From contig CAVQAG010000017.1 in NCBI GenBank assembly GCA_963710455.1, positions 472,149 to 536,148 of the forward strand: a DNA stretch of 64,000 nucleotides, read 5' to 3'. This document shows, piece after piece, positions 2,472 through 62,621 of the stretch; position 1 is the stretch's first letter, and every line of letters starts with the position of its first letter. Below the pieces are notes generated by a model, which saw only the letters and a program-made list of their open reading frames with translations, ran no database searches and was not told the origin of the DNA. The position numbers and the translations under genes are program-made. The stretch is from an uncultured delta proteobacterium (GTDB taxonomy: Bacteria; Desulfobacterota; Binatia; Binatales; Binataceae).

Positions 2472-3125
2472 CTACGGCGACAGTCGCGGTCGCACGAACA
2501 CGTCCCACAGCGTACCCATGAACATGTGCCCGAACTGCGAGAGCGCTTCCGCCTTGCGCGCTGGATCGTCGGTGCCCGAGACCGTGAACGTTCCGAGCTG
2601 CTGCATGAAGTCGGCGACCAGGATGTGCAGGACGCCGCACGCGAGCATACTCCCGGTGCGCTCGTGGCCGGCCCGAATCACCGTGTACAACGTCGAGGTC
2701 GCCCCCCACACGTCGAAACGCCCGTCGTCCCGCACTACTTTGAAACCGTCGAGCAGATAGGGCTGGCCGTCGACGCCGACAAAAGGCAGCGCATAGAGCA
2801 TCCGGCGATCGTACGCGCGGCCCGTTTCGACAAAGAGATTGAACAGCCCATCACGGACCGGCGCGCCGGTGGGGCCGGTGAAGCCGTCGACGCGCACAGT
2901 GCCGTTGGCGACCCCCGGATGCTCGGTGTCGGCGAGGAACACGTCCAAGTCCGGCATCGCGATCGTCAGCGTGAACTCCATGTAGTTGTTAACCTGCTGG
3001 CCGGCGCGCTCGGCCGCTACGTATGCGGCGAGGTCCTCAGGCGCGGGGGGTGCGGCGCCCTTTTGCAGAAAGCCCTTCATGGTTTCGGTGAAGCTCAGTC
3101 GGACCGGGGCGGTTTGCGGCGCCAT
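2472..3125 (-). CDS. Hypothetical protein resembling the middle domain of fused cholesterol-oxidase-like proteins
   Basis: ATG 3125 after AGGAGGAG RBS; LSFTETMKGF, FNLF...RRMLY, WGATSTLY motifs; sits between GMC and hydrolase genes. Confidence 0.7.
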   Translation of the reverse strand: MAPQTAPVRLSFTETMKGFLQKGAAPPAPEDLAAYVAAERAGQQVNNYMEFTLTIAMPDLDVFLADTEHPGVANGTVRVDGFTGPTGAPVRDGLFNLFVETGRAYDRRMLYALPFVGVDGQPYLLDGFKVVRDDGRFDVWGATSTLYTVIRAGHERTGSMLACGVLHILVADFMQQLGTFTVSGTDDPARKAEALSQFGHMFMGTLWDVFVRPRLSP

Positions 3126-3144
3126 AACTCCTCCTGCTGCTCGA

Positions 3145-4782
3145 TCAAATTCCGTCCAACGGATCTCTAATAGGCCGTGCGCTTGCGGCCTCGGGGGCGC
3201 GCCACGCGGCATTGCCGGTGAGCTTACGAATCGCGCGCTCGACGTTACGCTCGGCCACCGCCGCGATGGTATGCGACGGATTTACTCCGGTCGCCGCCGG
3301 TAGCGCGCCGCCGTCGAGCACATAGAGTCCGGGGTAGCCGAAGACCTCGCCGCCCGCGTCGGTGACGCCCTTTGCTTCGTCGTCCGCCATCATGCAGCCG
3401 CCCAGGTTGTGAACCGAGACCGGACGATGAAGCCGCTGCCAGAGCGGGTTGAAGGCGACCGCGCCGCCCATCGCATTGGCTACGTCGGTGCCGAATTGTT
3501 CCTCGGCGGCATAGAGCGTCGCGTTCGAAGCTACGTCCCAGCTCACTCTGAGCACGCGCGTGAGCGGGTCGAGCGCGAGCACGCCATCGGCTCGGTCACG
3601 GCCCATCGCGAGAAACACGGCCGTGTCGTCATGGGGCGGCGCGGTGGAACCAATACGGCCGCGAGCCGCGGCGCTGATGGCCGCGTGCAGCGCGTCGCTT
3701 GAAAGATCGATCACGTCTTTGAGCCATCCGTTGGAAGGATTGAGCAATTGGAGCAGGCCGGCGATCTCTTTTGGATAGCCGCCCTCCTCGAAAATGAACC
3801 ACACGCGGTCGGCGCCGACGCCGCGATCGTAGACGATACCGGTGGTAATCGTGGGTCCTATGGAGGGCGCAAACGGCATCGCGGTGTCGAACGCGAACGC
3901 GAGAAAATCACCGTTGCCCGAATAACCGCGCCCCAGGCGGGCGCTAAGTGCGGGCAAGGTGCCGAACTCGTCGCGGCATCGAAGCAGAAGCTCGGTCGAG
4001 TTGACCGCGCCCGCGCAGAGGAAGACCGTGCGCGCGGCGATCACGCTCTCGGCGCCGCCTGCCGAGTGATTTTTGAAGGTGACTTTGTAGCCGGCGCCTT
4101 CGCGCTCGATGCGTACGGCCTCGCTGAGCGGCGCGACGTCGGCGCGGTGCTGCTCGGCCAGCGCAAGGTAGTTGAGATCGAGGGTGTTCTTCGCGAGCAC
4201 GTTGCATCCGATATCGCATTCGCCGCAGTACGTGCATCCACTCTGCTCGACGCCGAACTTGTTGCGAAGCGCAACGCCGGGCGCGGAAAAATCGACCGCG
4301 ATATTCGGGTAACGAAACTGGGCCTCGCGCCCCAGGCGCTCGGCCGCCTGTTTCATCCACTGGGCCTTGAGCGGGACGCCGAGATGGCTGGAGGCCGTGA
4401 TGGGCGCTATGTCGAGCATGTAAGCGACGAGGTCGTAGTACGGGTCGAGCGCGCCGCGACTGTAGCCGGCCGGCCATCCGCTCTGGAAAAGATCGGCGGG
4501 CGCGCGCAAATGAACGTTGGCGTAGATTAGCGAACCGCCGCCCCATCCGGCACCCTGCACGATTGTCATCTCGCCGAAGGGCCGGACGTCGAACAAGCCC
4601 TGGCCAACGGCCCACTGCCAGCCTTTAATGGGGTCGTTCCAATCGCGCGGGAACTCGCCGCGTCCATAGCGGCGCCCGCGCTCCAGGATGGCAACGTTCA
4701 GTCCGGCCTGCGCCAGGCGGCATCCCGCCACCGCGCCGCCGAAGCCACTGCCGATAACGACCGCGTCGTAACTCGATCGCAT
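3145..4782 (-). CDS. GMC family FAD oxidoreductase (cholesterol oxidase-like)
   Basis: Start MRSSYD at 4782; VVIGSGFGG FAD-binding motif, GGGSLIYANV, CTYCGECDIGC, HNLGGC, NPSHTIAAVAER. Confidence 0.9.
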   Translation of the reverse strand: MRSSYDAVVIGSGFGGAVAGCRLAQAGLNVAILERGRRYGRGEFPRDWNDPIKGWQWAVGQGLFDVRPFGEMTIVQGAGWGGGSLIYANVHLRAPADLFQSGWPAGYSRGALDPYYDLVAYMLDIAPITASSHLGVPLKAQWMKQAAERLGREAQFRYPNIAVDFSAPGVALRNKFGVEQSGCTYCGECDIGCNVLAKNTLDLNYLALAEQHRADVAPLSEAVRIEREGAGYKVTFKNHSAGGAESVIAARTVFLCAGAVNSTELLLRCRDEFGTLPALSARLGRGYSGNGDFLAFAFDTAMPFAPSIGPTITTGIVYDRGVGADRVWFIFEEGGYPKEIAGLLQLLNPSNGWLKDVIDLSSDALHAAISAAARGRIGSTAPPHDDTAVFLAMGRDRADGVLALDPLTRVLRVSWDVASNATLYAAEEQFGTDVANAMGGAVAFNPLWQRLHRPVSVHNLGGCMMADDEAKGVTDAGGEVFGYPGLYVLDGGALPAATGVNPSHTIAAVAERNVERAIRKLTGNAAWRAPEAASARPIRDPLDGI

Positions 4783-37465: not shown

Positions 37466-38923
37466 TTACGGTCGTAGAGGGGCAAACGATACCGCGAACG
37501 CCGTCGCATCGTCCACTGCTCGCACGTCGAGTAGGAAGGCGTCATCCGCGATACGTCCGATGACCGGCGGGCGCGCCGCGCGGAACATCGCAGCAATGCC
37601 CTCAGGGGAAAGCTCAGGGTGAGTGACGCGAACCGCACGGGAGGGAATTTCTTCGGTCGGCTGCGCACCCGATCCGATTTGCGACAATGAGGGCACCACC
37701 TCGAGGCGGAAGTTTAGGTCCAGGCGTTCGGCGAGGATTTCACGGGCACGCTCTGCAACCAGCTCGAGCTCGCCCGCGGTGCGGCTTAAGTAGCGTAACG
37801 TAGGCAGTGTCGCGGCTAGATCGCCAGCGCGAAGATAAAGCCGCAGGGTGGCTTCCAGAGCCGACAAGGTCAGTTTATCGCAGCGGAGTGCCCGCCGAAG
37901 CGCATTCGCGCGCATTTTATTCACCAGTTCCCGTCGCCCCACCGCAACTCCCGCCTGCGGTCCGCCAAGCAACTTGTCGCCGGAGAACGTCACCAGCGCC
38001 GCACCGGCTGAAATCCGTTCGGCGACCATCGGCTCGCGCGGCAAGCCGAGTCGTCCAAGATCGATCAACGCCCCCGAGCCGAGATCCTCGGCCACGTCGA
38101 TTCCGTGACGCCGTCCGATTTCGACCAGCTCAGGCAGAGCGACCTCGGCGGTGAAGCCGACCACCCGATAGTTGGAGGGGTGGACCTTGAGCAGGAGCGC
38201 GGTGTCGGGGCCGATCGCGCGTTCATAGTCGGCGGGATGCGTGCGATTGGTGGTACCGACTTCGCGCAGGCGCGCTCCGCTGTGCTCCATCAGATCGGGC
38301 AGCCTGAAGGAGCCGCCGATTTCGATCAGCTCGCCGCGCGAAACCACCACTTCGCGCCCGGCGGCCAGCGAATTGAGCGCGAGCAGCACCGCGGCGGCGT
38401 TGTTGTTGACCACGGTCGCGGCTTGGGCGCCCGTGAGCGCGCATAGCTCCTCTTCGACCAGAGCGTCGCGCTCGCCGCGGCCGCCGCTTTCGAGGTCATA
38501 CTCGAGATTGACCGCAGTGCGCGCCGCCGTCGCCATCGCGTCGATCGCCGGCTCAGCCAAAAGCGCGCGGCCGAGATTGGTGTGGAGCACGACGCCGGTC
38601 GCGTTGACCACGGGATGCAGCGAGGGCTCGTCGGCTTCTATAGTGGTCCGCGTGCGCCGGATTACTTCCTCGAGCATCGCCTGGCGAGAGGATGCGCCAG
38701 AGGCTGGTCCCTGCTTCGACACGAGCGCAAGGCGCAGTTCCGCCTGGGCCCGGCGCACCATCAATTTCACATACTCGCGTCCGAGTCCCTCGATGCCATC
38801 GAGGCCCTCGCACGCGCGCAGGCATTCGTCCACCGGCGGCATTGCGCGCAGCGACTCGGCGCGCGCGTCGCGCCCGGCCCGCGTGGCAGCTGCACGGCCT
38901 TTCTTCGCCTGATCGGAACTCAT
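37466..38923 (-). CDS. selA: L-seryl-tRNA(Sec) selenium transferase
   Basis: NATGVVLHTNLGRA, VNNNAAAV, SRGELIEIGGSFR, EVGTTNRT, FSGDKLLGGPQAG. Confidence 0.96.
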   Translation of the reverse strand: MSSDQAKKGRAAATRAGRDARAESLRAMPPVDECLRACEGLDGIEGLGREYVKLMVRRAQAELRLALVSKQGPASGASSRQAMLEEVIRRTRTTIEADEPSLHPVVNATGVVLHTNLGRALLAEPAIDAMATAARTAVNLEYDLESGGRGERDALVEEELCALTGAQAATVVNNNAAAVLLALNSLAAGREVVVSRGELIEIGGSFRLPDLMEHSGARLREVGTTNRTHPADYERAIGPDTALLLKVHPSNYRVVGFTAEVALPELVEIGRRHGIDVAEDLGSGALIDLGRLGLPREPMVAERISAGAALVTFSGDKLLGGPQAGVAVGRRELVNKMRANALRRALRCDKLTLSALEATLRLYLRAGDLAATLPTLRYLSRTAGELELVAERAREILAERLDLNFRLEVVPSLSQIGSGAQPTEEIPSRAVRVTHPELSPEGIAAMFRAARPPVIGRIADDAFLLDVRAVDDATAFAVSFAPLRP

Positions 38924-51216: not shown

Positions 51217-52326
51217 ATGAAGGTCAAGGCGGCTGTCGCACACAAGGCCGGCGCTCCCCTCGAGATCGAAACCGTCGATCTCGACGGCCCTCGGCAGGGC
51301 GAAGTGCTGGTCGAGATTAAAGCTAGCGGCGTATGCCATACCGACGCCTACACGCTCTCGGGCAAGGACCCCGAGGGGCTGTTTCCCGCGATCCTCGGCC
51401 ACGAAGGCGCAGGCGTGGTGGTCGAGGCCGGGGCAGGCGTGACGACGCTTCGCTCCGGTGACCACGTAATCCCGCTTTACATCCCGGAGTGCCGCCAATG
51501 TCCGGCCTGCCTCTCGGGCAAGACCAACCTGTGCACAGCGATCCGCGAGACCCAGGGGCGCGGGGTGATGCCCGACGGCCAGAGCCGGTTCTCGAGCGGT
51601 GGCCGGATGCTCCATCACTACATGGGAACCTCGACCTTCGCCAATTTCACCGTGGTACCGGAGATCGCGCTGGCCAAGGTGCGCGAGGACGCGCCCTTCG
51701 ACCGCATCTGTTATGTCGGATGCGGCGTGACGACCGGCGTTGGCGCGGTGATCAACACTGCGAAGGTCCAGGTCGGCGACTCGGTGGTGGTCTTCGGGCT
51801 TGGCGGGATCGGGCTCAACGTGGTGCAGGGCGCGCGAATCGCTGGCGCGCGGATGATCGCCGGAGTGGACCTCAATCCGGCGCGCCGCGCGATCGCTGAG
51901 AAGTTCGGCCTAACTCATTTCGTCAATCCCGCCGAGGTCCGGGGTGACCTTGTGCCCTACCTGGTTGATCTGACCGGCGGTGGGGCCGACTTCGCATTCG
52001 AGTGCATCGGCAACGTCAAGCTGATGCGGCAGGCGCTCGAGTGCTGCCATCGTGGATGGGGCACCTGCGTGATAATTGGCGTGGCGGGCGCAGGCGAGGA
52101 GATTTCGACCCGTCCATTTCAGCTCGTCACCGGCCGCACCTGGAAGGGAACCGCATTCGGCGGCGCCAGGGGACGGCGCGACGTGCCGAAGATCGTCGAC
52201 TGGTACATGGAAGGCAAAATAAACATCGACGACCTGATCACGCACATGATGCCGCTCGACCGCATCAACGAGGCCTTCGACCTGATGCATCGCGGCGAGT
52301 CGATTCGGACGGTGGTGACGTTCTGA
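51217..52326 (+). CDS. frmA: S-(hydroxymethyl)glutathione dehydrogenase / class III alcohol dehydrogenase
   Basis: GVCHTDAYTLSG.DPEG.FP.ILGHEGAG, CRQC..C.SGKTNLC, TRPFQLVTGR.WKG. Confidence 0.95.
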   Translation: MKVKAAVAHKAGAPLEIETVDLDGPRQGEVLVEIKASGVCHTDAYTLSGKDPEGLFPAILGHEGAGVVVEAGAGVTTLRSGDHVIPLYIPECRQCPACLSGKTNLCTAIRETQGRGVMPDGQSRFSSGGRMLHHYMGTSTFANFTVVPEIALAKVREDAPFDRICYVGCGVTTGVGAVINTAKVQVGDSVVVFGLGGIGLNVVQGARIAGARMIAGVDLNPARRAIAEKFGLTHFVNPAEVRGDLVPYLVDLTGGGADFAFECIGNVKLMRQALECCHRGWGTCVIIGVAGAGEEISTRPFQLVTGRTWKGTAFGGARGRRDVPKIVDWYMEGKINIDDLITHMMPLDRINEAFDLMHRGESIRTVVTF

Positions 52327-52371
52327 GAGTGATGGACTCGGTGCGCTGAACCCCGGATGGCGCGCTCGCGA

Positions 52372-53106
52372 TCAGCCGCGGCTGGGAAGCATCCTCTCTG
52401 CTAGCGCGGCGGCCAAGGAAGCCGTTGCCCATCCCGCGGCCGGCGCCGCGAGCGCTCCCACAGCTGTCCCGACGAACACCAGCCAATCCACGTCCATCCG
52501 CTGGCGCGCGATGCTGAGCGTAAGGCCGGCTGCACCGGCCAACCCAGGGACTCCCCACCATGCGATCTCGGCGAGCACGATCGATCCCATTACCCGCCGT
52601 ATCCCAGGCCGCAGCATGGTTCCGCCGACTGCCGCGAACATCACGGCCAGCATGAAGTCGGCGGCAAAAGTCCCGAGCCACAGATGCGGCGGCGGCCACA
52701 GGAACATCGGGAGCCCTCTGGAGGCGGTGAACTGCAACAACGTGCCAATCCCAAGGGCTGCCAGCGCGGCGATTCCGGCGGCGGCGGTGGGGCGGTGCCG
52801 CAGTGCGATCGCGATCACGATCGCGATAACCAATAATGCCCCCGAGATTGCGAAAGCTCTCGCGTATTCGCGGCGGCGCCGTGCGATGTCCTGAACCGAA
52901 GGCGTGGCGTCGTCGCCGGAACTATCAGAGGCCGACGCCGCGTCCACAACGGTGTCAACCGCGCCTGATTTTTTGGATCTAACTGATTGAGCCGATGGCG
53001 CGACGAAGCCGCGTGCGAGTGTCGGCGCACGCCCAATCACCAGCATCGCCGCCGCCAGCACTAACACTCCCACTACCCCAGCGAGGCCGCGTATCATAGT
53101 GGGCAA
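52372..53106 (-). CDS. Hypothetical multi-pass membrane protein
   Basis: 244-aa ORF with several hydrophobic segments; no family recognised. Confidence 0.6.
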   Translation of the reverse strand: MPTMIRGLAGVVGVLVLAAAMLVIGRAPTLARGFVAPSAQSVRSKKSGAVDTVVDAASASDSSGDDATPSVQDIARRRREYARAFAISGALLVIAIVIAIALRHRPTAAAGIAALAALGIGTLLQFTASRGLPMFLWPPPHLWLGTFAADFMLAVMFAAVGGTMLRPGIRRVMGSIVLAEIAWWGVPGLAGAAGLTLSIARQRMDVDWLVFVGTAVGALAAPAAGWATASLAAALAERMLPSRG

Positions 53107-53278
53107 CTATCCCATCAGCACGGTACGCGTGGCAATGCCCTCCCGGAAACGGTCGGGAAAGCAGCCAGAAATTGCAGACATCCGCCGGACACATGAATGG
53201 ACTTGCGGGCGGCGCGGGGTATAGTTTTTGAGGGCGCGGCGACGCGTCTGGCGGAGGGACCGGTCCTTAGGAGGAACG

Positions 53279-53890
53279 ATGGCCTGGATTCGTACGATCT
53301 CCGAGCAGGAGGCCGAAGGCCCGCTTGCCGACCTCTACGCCAAGCTGCGGCAAAATCCGCACTTCGGCGTGGTCCCCAACGTGATAAAGGCCTTCAGCCT
53401 GCGGCCAGAAATCGCCGCCGCGGTGACCAGGCTCTCGAGCGCGGCAACCTTCGGCGGCTCGCATCTTAGCCGCGTACAGGAGGAGATGATCGCGGCAGCC
53501 GTGTCGTCGGTAAACCGATGCCATTATTGAACCAACGCTCACGCGGAGGTGCTCCGCGTCGAGTCCCGTGGCGACCATGCGCTGGTTGCAGCGATCAAAA
53601 ACGACTGGCGCAGTGCGCCGCTTGGCACCGCTGACCGCGCGATGCTGGAGTACGCTGAGAAACTTACCCGCACGCCGTCAGCAATGACGCGCGCCGACCT
53701 CGACGGCCTGCGCCGTTATTTTTCCGAGGAGCAGGCTTACGACATCGTTGTGATCACTTGCCTGTTCAACTTCATGGACCGCGCCGCCGACGCGTTTGGT
53801 GTCGAACTCGATCCGATGCTTTTGCAACTCGCGCAATCGGCGCCCGACGGCGAAGCGCTAGGCGAAGTCGCCGCGTCCAAACGGAGCTGA
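53279..53890 (+). CDS. AhpD/CMD-like peroxidase, predicted selenoprotein (Sec at UGA 53528-53530, codon 84)
   Basis: NRCHY-UGA-TNAHAEVLR matches the AhpD CxYC..AH motif; frame continues with MLEYAEKLT..P, FNFMDR; SECIS-like hairpin. Confidence 0.88.
53541..53559 (+). promoter_or_regulatory. Putative bacterial SECIS element
   Basis: ACGCGGAG-GTG-CTCCGCGT perfect 8-bp stem, starting 11 nt after the UGA. Confidence 0.75.
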
Positions 53891-53895
53891 CGCAG

Positions 53896-54339
53896 ATGAA
53901 ACATCAGCGACCAATTCTGGTGCCGTGGCGGCAAAACGGATGGCGCACGATCCGCGGCTTGATCGCGATGGTGCCGGTGGTCGCGTGCGCGATCGCGTTC
54001 AGCGGATGCTGGCCGTTTAATCGCACGCCGCCTCAACAGGAGTATTTCAATGCGCTCAAAGTCGGCAACTCGGCGCAGGCGAGCCAACTCTGGTTGCAGA
54101 TGACACCCGGTCAGCGCGCCAAGTTCGAGCGCGGCGAGGACATCCGGCCCAGCGTGTCGAACAAGGACGTGCAACAGGCGATCGACGAGCACTACTCCGA
54201 GCAGGACGACGACGGCTCGGCTCCCAAGCACGTCGAGCTGTCGCCGGGGAGCACCGGGGCAGGGCTACAGGATCTGCATTCTTATCTCAACTCCAACGGC
54301 GCCGCCGATGCGCCCCAACCGGCGCCGGCCGAGCAATAA
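53896..54339 (+). CDS. Hypothetical lipoprotein
   Basis: Basic N-terminus, hydrophobic stretch, lipobox FSGC. Confidence 0.65.
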   Translation: MKHQRPILVPWRQNGWRTIRGLIAMVPVVACAIAFSGCWPFNRTPPQQEYFNALKVGNSAQASQLWLQMTPGQRAKFERGEDIRPSVSNKDVQQAIDEHYSEQDDDGSAPKHVELSPGSTGAGLQDLHSYLNSNGAADAPQPAPAEQ

Positions 54340-54403
54340 CTAACGAATAGCAAAGCGGCGCGAGCCGGATCGCCTCGCGCGCCACTGAGGACACTGACTC
54401 ACG

Positions 54404-55558
54404 ATGGAGTTCGCCTTCAACCCTGATCAGGAGATGCTTCGGCGCACGCTCGCCGATTTCGCCGCGCGCGAGCTTGCGCCAGCCTATGCCGGCCGCGACA
54501 AGGATGAAGACCTGCCGCGCGCGCTCGTGCTTAAGCTCGGCGAGTTGGGGCTGCTCGCACCGATGGTCGAGCAGCGCCACGGCGGCCAGGAACTGGATTA
54601 CGTCTCGCTCGGCATCGCGCACGAAGAAATTGGCCGCGCGGATTTCAACGCGGCGTATGTACTGCTCCTTTCAGGGTTGGTCGGCGCGATCGTTAAAGCT
54701 CGCGGCGACGAGCGCCAACGCGCCGAGTACCTCCCGCCAATCTGCCGCGGCGACGTTGTGAGCGCGCTTGCCGTCACCGAGCCCGGCGGCGGCTCGGACG
54801 CCGCGCATATCCGTCTGCAGGCGCGGCGCGACGGCGACAGTTACCTGCTGAGCGGCGAAAAGACCTCGATCTCGCTCGGCTCATGGGCCGACACGGCGCT
54901 GGTGATGGCGCGCACTGGAACGGTCGAGCAGGGTGCGCATGGGGTGAGCGCCTTTTACGTCGACCTGCGAGCACCGGGAGTGAGTCGCGCGCGCTTTCGC
55001 GACCTCGGCACGCGCGCGATCGGCCGCGGTCAGCTCTTCTTCGACGCGGTGCGCGTGCCGGCCGCCGCGCGAATCGGTTCCGAGGGCGCCGGCTTCGTAC
55101 AGGTGATGCAGGGTTTCGACTTTAGCCGCTCGCTTATCGGCCTGATGTGTGTCGGGGCGGCGCAGCAAAGCCTCGACGAAACCGTCAAGTACGTGACCGA
55201 GCGCCAGGCTTTCGGTTCCGCGCTGGCGCGCTTTGAGGGCGTCTCGTTTCCGCTGGCTGAGGCCGCGGTCAAGCTGCGCGCGGCGCGCCTGCTCTGCTAC
55301 GAGGCCCTATGGTTACGCGATCAGGGGAAGGCGCACGGATGGCTGGCCGCGGGATGCAAGTGGTGGGCGCCGGAACTGGCAGTCCAGGTGATCCATCAGT
55401 GCCTGCTCCTGCACGGTCATCTCGGCTTCAGCCTCGACCTGCCCCATCAGCAACGCCTGCGCGACGTTATCGGGCTCGAGATCGGCGACGGTACCGCGCA
55501 GATTATGAAGACGCTGGTGGCGCGCGAGGTCATCGGCAAGGCGGCCCGTCCCTACTAG
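54404..55558 (+). CDS. Acyl-CoA dehydrogenase (cyclohexanecarboxyl-CoA dehydrogenase-like)
   Basis: TEPGGGSDAA, GEKTSIS, VMQGFDFSR.LIGL, CKWWAP, QRLRDVIGLEIGDGTAQIMK; AliB-like from memory, not searched. Confidence 0.88.
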   Translation: MEFAFNPDQEMLRRTLADFAARELAPAYAGRDKDEDLPRALVLKLGELGLLAPMVEQRHGGQELDYVSLGIAHEEIGRADFNAAYVLLLSGLVGAIVKARGDERQRAEYLPPICRGDVVSALAVTEPGGGSDAAHIRLQARRDGDSYLLSGEKTSISLGSWADTALVMARTGTVEQGAHGVSAFYVDLRAPGVSRARFRDLGTRAIGRGQLFFDAVRVPAAARIGSEGAGFVQVMQGFDFSRSLIGLMCVGAAQQSLDETVKYVTERQAFGSALARFEGVSFPLAEAAVKLRAARLLCYEALWLRDQGKAHGWLAAGCKWWAPELAVQVIHQCLLLHGHLGFSLDLPHQQRLRDVIGLEIGDGTAQIMKTLVAREVIGKAARPY

Positions 55559-62297: not shown

Positions 62298-62621
62298 TCA
62301 GTTGCGAAATTTATCTGTCATGCGTCGAAGCACTGATCGTGCTCCGCCACCTTGCGCCTTGGACGAATCGGAGGCGGCCGACGTGTCCGCGGCGGGGGAC
62401 TTGAGCGTCGCGAAAATATCCTCGACCTCGCCGTCAGCCGGAAAGCGGCCGGCCTCGGCCTTGGAAAAGATCACCTGGCCGTCGACGAGCACGTCGAACT
62501 GTCCGGTTTTGCCAGCCTTGATTTCGGCGTTCTCACCGAAGCGCTTTTGTAGCGAGGCGGCCAAACTGGCCGCGCGAGGTTTGTATCCTCAAGCTGAACA
62601 GTAGAGTATTTCGGTCGCCAT
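62298..62621 (-). CDS. Rdx family (SelW/SelT/SelH-like) protein, predicted selenoprotein (Sec at UGA 62589-62591, codon 11)
   Basis: MATEILYCSA-UGA-GYKPRAASLA...G..GQFDV.VDG..IFSK...RFP; AAGGAAGGA RBS; SECIS-like hairpin. Confidence 0.9.
62557..62573 (-). promoter_or_regulatory. Putative bacterial SECIS element
   Basis: GCGGCCA-GTT-TGGCCGC perfect 7-bp stem at nt 16-32 after the UGA. Confidence 0.72.

Follow-up and report, generated by a model that had tools for sequence, protein, structure and literature searches.

The locus at 53279-53890 (+) of the window (the whole stretch of 64,000 nucleotides that was analysed) is very probably a genuine AhpD-like gene which decodes an in-frame TGA as selenocysteine (Sec), a single gene that gene callers have split. 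It comprised 203 codons plus a terminal TGA, with the in-frame TGA at 53528-53530 as codon 84. With open reading frames (ORF) called under translation table 11, the locus was broken into an upstream ORF of 100 aa (53228-53530; TTG start, ending in ...VNRCHY*) and a downstream ORF of 113 aa (53549-53890; GTG start). Both ORF lay in one frame, because the distance between 53549 and 53279 is 270 bases. Reading TGA 53528-53530 as a residue resulted in a single product of 203 aa, MAWIR...NRCHYUTNAHAEVLR...KRS, with U at residue 84, and the first-pass annotation was thus right in taking the two ORF for one frame. The features of the gene and of its 5' flank were:

53198-53225 (+): promoter-like site TGGACT-16-TATAGT, sigma-70-like, weak, by consensus match only
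53269-53274 (+): Shine-Dalgarno sequence AGGAGG, from the sequence, 4 nt 5' of ATG 53279
53279-53890 (+): CDS of the predicted AhpD-like / peroxidase-related (TIGR01926) selenoprotein, by profile and model, with orthologues covering residues 1-203
53483-53485 (+): Glu69 codon, counterpart of Glu118 in the proton relay of M. tuberculosis AhpD (MtAhpD), invariant in 26 homologues
53519-53530 (+): redox motif C81-H82-Y83-U84 (TGC CAT TAT TGA), predicted Sec codon 53528-53530
53540-53542 (+): His88 codon, counterpart of MtAhpD His137, invariant, overlapping the 5' foot of the predicted SECIS stem

G-rich motifs resembling a Shine-Dalgarno sequence also preceded the ATG of the orthologues. The promoter-like site lay about 55 nt 5' of the start codon and matched the consensus at 9 of 12 positions; two such sites were found, against 0.3 expected from shuffles.

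Reassignment of TGA (code 4/25) was considered and ruled out. TGA closed 27 of the 63 long frames in the window, in which it was the commonest stop, and it was also the terminator of the 203-codon gene itself and of seven of its eight orthologues. TGA therefore acts as an ordinary stop, and is not reassigned.

Homology and fold across codon 84

The read-through product matched NCBIfam TIGR01926 (peroxid_rel) with 115.6 bits (cut-off 81.8), and also matched Pfam CMD. The TIGR01926 alignment placed residues 2-177 on profile positions 1-175 of 178, and therefore crossed the TGA. The closest solved structures were single-chain Cys proteins, namely 3c1l (E 1.2e-25), 2pfx and D. radiodurans AhpD 6k40, and their C-x-Y-C aligned to C-H-Y-U, so that U84 corresponded to the second Cys of CxxC. 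Both the profile score above cut-off and the alignment of U84 to Cys agreed with the AhpD/CMD motif with UGA at the second Cys which had been read from the sequence in the first-pass annotation. The three Cys-type relatives (6k40; 3c1l, Mesorhizobium Mlr4105; 2pfx, Silicibacter peroxidase-related protein) were whole-chain homologues of the window protein (E 1e-25 to 1e-22; identity 31-35%), but with Cys at the Sec position.

The AlphaFold2 model of the read-through product, built with 26 homologues, predicted an all-helical AhpD-like domain (pLDDT 93.9; pTM 0.90). The modelled helix 82-95 began at the redox motif and ran across codon 84. The best Foldseek matches of the model were 6k40 (TM 0.81/0.88) and 3c1l, with a range of TM of 0.77-0.88 over about 181 columns. 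Residues E69, C81, C/U84 and H88 were invariant in the 26 homologues, and Y83 was nearly so.

The relay consists of Glu118, Cys130, His132, Cys133 and His137 in MtAhpD, and of Glu36, Cys48, Tyr50, Cys51 and His55 in P. aeruginosa PA0269 (PMC3141380). Glu69, Cys81, Tyr83, Sec84 and His88 of the window protein were spaced identically to both relays, at intervals of 12/2/1/4, and Sec would therefore replace the second active-site Cys. The likeness to MtAhpD (TIGR00777; PDB 1knc, 1gu9) extended to the CMD helical core and, within the relay, to the pattern Glu-x11-Cys-x-x-Cys-x3-His (E118/C130/C133/H137 in MtAhpD, E69/C81/U84/H88 in the window protein). However, MtAhpD has Cys instead of Sec, has His132 where the window protein and PA0269 have Tyr, and was only distantly related (Foldseek E 0.4-0.7 to 1knc and 1gu9).

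TGA and hairpin in relatives

Orthologues and family members were sought in 61 related genomes, translated in six frames. Eight orthologues (63-93% identity) were obtained, each with exactly one in-frame TGA, located at the column of codon 84, and with matches covering residues 1-203. Many more distant family members, with or without TGA, were found in the same 61 genomes; an in-frame TGA was present in 40 of the 64 family matches, and its column was verified in 20. When homologues were checked for Cys or Sec at this column, the 30 aligned loci held TGA (20 loci) or TGC/TGT (10 loci) and nothing else. Conservation in the 30-locus alignment carried on to the C-terminus.

Omega was 0.04-0.12 upstream of the TGA and 0.09-0.13 downstream of it, at dS of 0.4-1.2. 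These values were obtained with five same-length orthologues; L027 was left out because its one-codon indel breaks the ungapped assumption. The low downstream omega therefore argues for translation of the part after the TGA, and purifying selection is equal on both sides (omega about 0.1).

Two nested elements were delimited just downstream of codon 84:

53541-53559 (+): predicted SECIS core ACGCGGAG-GUG-CUCCGCGU, perfect 8-bp stem, triloop GUG at 53549-53551
53537-53564 (+): extended predicted SECIS helix, the core lengthened at its base by four pairs, with a C bulged out of the 3' arm

The hairpin began ten bases past the TGA, and its loop stood 18 nt past the UGA (53531-53548). The perfect 8-bp hairpin with G-U in its apical loop described earlier at 53541-53559 was therefore confirmed, the loop being the triloop GUG. 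Fold energy was -12.3 kcal/mol for the core and -17.6 kcal/mol for the extended helix; a 48-nt segment had -20.8 kcal/mol, with a single-sequence z-score of only -2.1.

A 2026 review (PMC13188914) summarises the bSECIS model of Zhang and Gladyshev in four constraints: a stem of 4-16 bp carrying an apical loop of 3-9 nt; a G as first or second loop base, mostly with G or U after it; a UGA-to-loop distance of 16-37 nt; and a minimum free energy of -7.5 kcal/mol or lower. The hairpin agreed with all four constraints (3-nt loop and 8-bp stem; G-first GUG; 18 nt; -12.3 kcal/mol), its 3-nt loop being the smallest that the model allows. If the closing G-C pair opens, a GGUGC loop would be offered to SelB. 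Chance rates were counted over the window, with 63% GC. An 8-bp Watson-Crick hairpin with a loop of 3-9 nt, G as first or second loop base and a location 16-37 nt downstream followed 0.39% of positions, and a triloop hairpin at exactly this offset followed 0.005%; the hairpin is therefore no chance product of GC richness.

An equivalent hairpin was present in 19 of the 20 TGA loci, with a stem of 6-9 bp, a 5' arm ending at +17/+18 and a triloop of GUG, GUC, GGC, GGU or GUU, and in none of 11 Cys loci (the 10 aligned ones plus one metagenomic Cys orthologue). The metagenomic orthologue was 65% identical, had TGC at the column and encoded the near-same peptide HAELLRF, with the stem decayed. As the codons of H-A-E-x-L-R (the conserved peptide HAEVLR) also form the stem, the conservation of the stem is partly a coding constraint, and the contrast between Sec and Cys loci is therefore the stronger argument for a SECIS.

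A single pairing register for all TGA loci did not fit, with orthologues and paralogues pairing one base apart. Covariation was for this reason counted per group, and the shift in register suggests that it is the hairpin which was preserved, and not its exact letters. Among the orthologues, 98% of cells were paired, against 29-61% with the partner slid, and one pair covaried (C-G to U-A), which was thin evidence in that 65 of 500 shuffles matched it. In the paralogue group, two pairs covaried (C-G to G-C, and A-U to G-C), and 1 of 500 shuffles reached the score. Covariation of the aligned stems thus appeared modest and in the right direction. No Rfam family matched anywhere in the window at gathering thresholds. 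The reading of hairpin 53541-53559 as a predicted SECIS element is supported by its behaviour in homologues, in which it tracked the TGA state.

Sec decoding and rival readings

The assembly (88.6% complete, 17 contigs) encoded selA, selB, selD and tRNA-Sec, all above family cut-offs. As claimed earlier, selA was in the same window; it was located 15 kb from the selenoprotein gene and not in an operon with it. The search of the genome for selB, selC and selD found selB (370.7 bits, full length), tRNA-Sec (an ARAGORN call with anticodon UCA, on a contig other than that of the window) and selD (383.6 bits), the last directly downstream of selB and itself with one in-frame TGA. ARAGORN called no tRNA in the whole window. 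A second above-threshold match to RF01852 was ruled out as a second tRNA-Sec, as it was an ordinary tRNA-Ser(tga). Three other UGA genes in the genome had a hairpin of the same style, with a G-first triloop at +18 to +23; one of them was the SelW-like gene (TIGR02174 54.4 bits, cut-off 34.2). The features concerned were:

Window 37505-38851 (-): selA, L-seryl-tRNA(Sec) selenium transferase (TIGR00474 563.8 bits; Pfam SelA 2.4e-154)
Window 62298-62621 (-): SelW-like gene, hairpin GCGGCCA-GUU-UGGCCGC, loop at +23
Contig C11: selD, hairpin GGGUCC-GGA-GGACCU, loop at +18
Contig C9: second CxxU CMD-type protein (C-A-L-U), hairpin UUGCCUU-GGC-AAGGCAA, loop at +21

Because all the parts are present, UGA84 is predicted to be decoded as Sec. 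Sec-tRNA(Sec) would be made by SelA, with selenophosphate from SelD, whose gene here contains a UGA. SelB carrying Sec-tRNA(Sec, anticodon UCA) would bind the intra-CDS hairpin as the ribosome reaches UGA84, and Sec would be inserted. The redox motif C81-H-Y-U84 would then be placed at the N-terminus of helix 82-95, with Glu69 and His88 at relay positions. In AhpD, the second active-site Cys is the attacking nucleophile and is resolved by the first Cys. Sec84, in the place of MtAhpD Cys133, may accordingly be the attacking residue, and its resolution by Cys81 would form a selenenylsulfide. With Sec in this place, the product may be more reactive as a thiol/selenol oxidoreductase, and may either reduce hydroperoxides itself or serve as the reductant of a peroxiredoxin-type partner.

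Decay of the gene is extremely unlikely. A pseudogene, with a Cys codon mutated to TGA, would leave an inactive fragment of 83 residues and a decaying downstream part; TGC/TGT are one base change from TGA, and gene callers see two fragments at the locus. However, eight orthologues, the most distant at 63% identity, have kept the TGA, as have 20 of 30 family loci, downstream omega was near 0.1 at dS up to 1.2, and a SECIS-type hairpin co-occurred with the TGA. A spurious TGA from an assembly or sequencing error might be suspected in a draft of 88.6% completeness and 17 contigs, but eight further genomes, each assembled independently, had TGA at the same column, which makes such an error implausible. 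The codon was also present in many metagenome contigs, with gene calls broken at the same place; the probability left to this reading is vanishingly small.

Two separate genes, encoding an N-terminal protein of 83/100 aa and a 113-aa protein initiated independently at GTG 53549, would halve the active-site motif. Both ORF exist under table 11 and many database entries are of 113 aa, but the junction is crossed without a break by the CMD/TIGR01926 domain, by the solved homologues and by the AlphaFold model, helix 82-95 included. In addition, GTG 53549 is part of the hairpin loop and has no ribosome-binding site, and the Cys homologues are single proteins. Two genes are hardly credible at this locus. 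Read-through of UGA84 not as Sec, or not only as Sec, is improbable: near-cognate Trp/Cys might be inserted, or Cys via the Sec pathway when selenium is scarce. The inserted residue is not identifiable from sequence analysis, and Cys is tolerated at the column in 10 homologues. Against this reading, the Sec machinery is complete, the hairpin fits bSECIS geometry in the same style as the post-UGA hairpin of selD in this genome, and an established Sec family has exactly this CxxU position. The hairpin would be a mere read-through stimulator if UGA84 were read in that way.

Known families and annotation

With codon 84 taken as Sec, the gene had the characters of the AhpD-like selenoprotein family (COG2128/TIGR01926, CxxU): an HMM score above cut-off, Sec in place of the second Cys, homologues with Cys in the Sec column, and a bSECIS inside the CDS just downstream. 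No essential difference was present; this copy comes from an uncultured Binataceae (Binatota). On every criterion that can be tested in sequence, the window gene is a predicted member of this family.

Two related families were ruled out. NF041238 (AhpD_rel_CFYUT, 'alkylhydroperoxidase-related (seleno)protein', Sargasso 'hypothetical protein 1') has a C-terminal AhpD-like domain homologous to the window protein, with C-F-Y-U-T where the window protein has C-H-Y-U-T. However, its members reach about 357 aa through an additional N-terminal half, and the window protein matched profile positions 151-342 only, with 94.1 bits against a cut-off of 175. The match to AhpD proper (TIGR00777) was 18.8 bits against a cut-off of 191.95. 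Genetic linkage to ahpC, also used as a character of AhpD proper, was not seen: no peroxiredoxin/AhpC gene was adjacent to the window gene. Its neighbours encoded a Zn-dependent alcohol dehydrogenase, a 244-aa membrane protein, a 147-aa protein without family match and an acyl-CoA dehydrogenase, and gene order around it was conserved only within the genus.

AhpD-like CxxU proteins (COG2128) were first recognised as a selenoprotein family in 2005, when 27 sequences were described from the Sargasso Sea (PMC1088965); in GOS they ranked fourth in abundance among selenoprotein families, with 299 sequences (PMC2398784). 'AhpD-like protein, TIGR01926, CxxU' is catalogued as a selenoprotein family (PMC1088965, PMC2398784, PMC13188914). 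Of the first-pass description of this class as known but sparsely described, the first part holds and the second does not, the family being among the most abundant bacterial ones in metagenomes. The expectation that such genes are mis-annotated as fragments was correct: most close relatives were 113-aa C-terminal pieces named 'hypothetical protein', and at least one N-terminal fragment ending in NRCHY was also present in public collections. The window gene had no selenoprotein annotation in the public collections searched, and a full-text literature search found no paper treating Binatota selenoproteins. The window gene is an unannotated member of the AhpD-like selenoprotein family known since 2005. 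Family, motif and SECIS type are already catalogued, and no new mechanism is involved.

In public collections, the fragment entries of this locus and its relatives should be joined and marked as selenoproteins. The genome of this uncultured Binataceae has a working-looking Sec system, used at least partly for small thiol-redox proteins. Natural pairs of Sec and Cys orthologues, and of loci with the SECIS present or decayed, are useful for the study of Sec-to-Cys exchange.

A tentative and somewhat doubtful extension is that Binatia (Binatota) may have an unusually expanded, unannotated set of Sec-containing AhpD/CMD paralogues with a uniformly minimal triloop SECIS. If true, this would mean a lineage-specific compact recognition element for SelB and a redox-centred selenoproteome, in an uncultured phylum as yet unsurveyed for selenium use. 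The source genome had at least two predicted Sec genes of AhpD/CMD type plus the SelW-like gene and selD, and the SECIS of all four appeared to be of one style, with a perfect stem of 6-8 bp and a G-first 3-nt loop 18-23 nt past the UGA.

TGA-bearing family members and the peptide encoded by the SECIS

An in-frame TGA was present in 40 of the 64 family matches (E ≤ 1e-10) in 61 related genomes, which were relatives from the same genus, family or class, suggesting that the class carries many Sec-containing AhpD-type paralogues; the TGA column was confirmed at only 20 loci. Several genomes, G027 and G048 among them, had three or four TGA-bearing family loci each, and some of these loci sat within open frames of 380-530 aa.

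The peptide encoded by the SECIS (window 53540-53560 and the homologous positions of family loci L022-L050) varied with the Sec/Cys state: H-A-E-(V/F/G)-L-R was found at these positions in Sec forms, and mostly H-G-A-(A/I)-(V/L)-R in Cys forms. Given this difference, RNA structure appears to constrain the protein sequence at the SECIS. The hairpin register of the paralogues differed from that of the orthologue group by one base.

A full-length database relative of 203 aa (P0017, a JGI metagenome protein) matched well in its N- and C-terminal thirds, and its middle around the Sec site was an unrelated Arg/Pro-rich sequence. This middle looks like a gene call in another frame through that stretch, or a contig with indels.

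Other genes with an in-frame TGA in the source genome

62298-62621 of the window, (-): SelW/SelT/SelH-family gene (TIGR02174), second selenoprotein gene of the window, TGA 62591-62589
G000:C11:421056-423969 (L001, L018), strand not given: selB directly followed by selD, in-frame TGA within selD
G000:C9:128069-128557 (L052), strand not given: second, distant CMD/AhpD-like gene of this genome with in-frame TGA, C-A-L-U motif

The SelW-like product (N-terminus MATEILYCSA-U-GYKPR, motif CxxU) scored 54.4 bits against TIGR02174 (cut-off 34.2), and the loop of its hairpin (GCGGCCA-GUU-UGGCCGC) began 23 nt past the UGA. By the in-frame TGA in selD (context …KAAG-U-AGKLGP…), SelD of the source genome is predicted to be a selenoprotein itself; the hairpin after this UGA was GGGUCC-GGA-GGACCU, with the loop at +18. 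The TGA of the distant CMD/AhpD-like gene preceded a hairpin (UUGCCUU-GGC-AAGGCAA) whose 7-bp stem was perfect and whose triloop, GGC, lay at +21, and the product of this gene scored only 38.8 bits against TIGR01926, under the cut-off.

Gene neighbourhood of the AhpD-like gene

51217-55558 of the window: Zn-ADH, 244-aa membrane protein (-), AhpD-like gene, 147-aa protein without family match, acyl-CoA dehydrogenase

This gene order was kept in all five same-genus orthologue loci and was not kept in the three orthologue loci from other genera. Downstream of the G014 orthologue (L022, G014:C1), the acyl-CoA dehydrogenase match was in two pieces (2631-2900 and 2905-3609), the distance between which was not a multiple of three, suggesting a frameshift or an assembly error in this gene (2631-3609).
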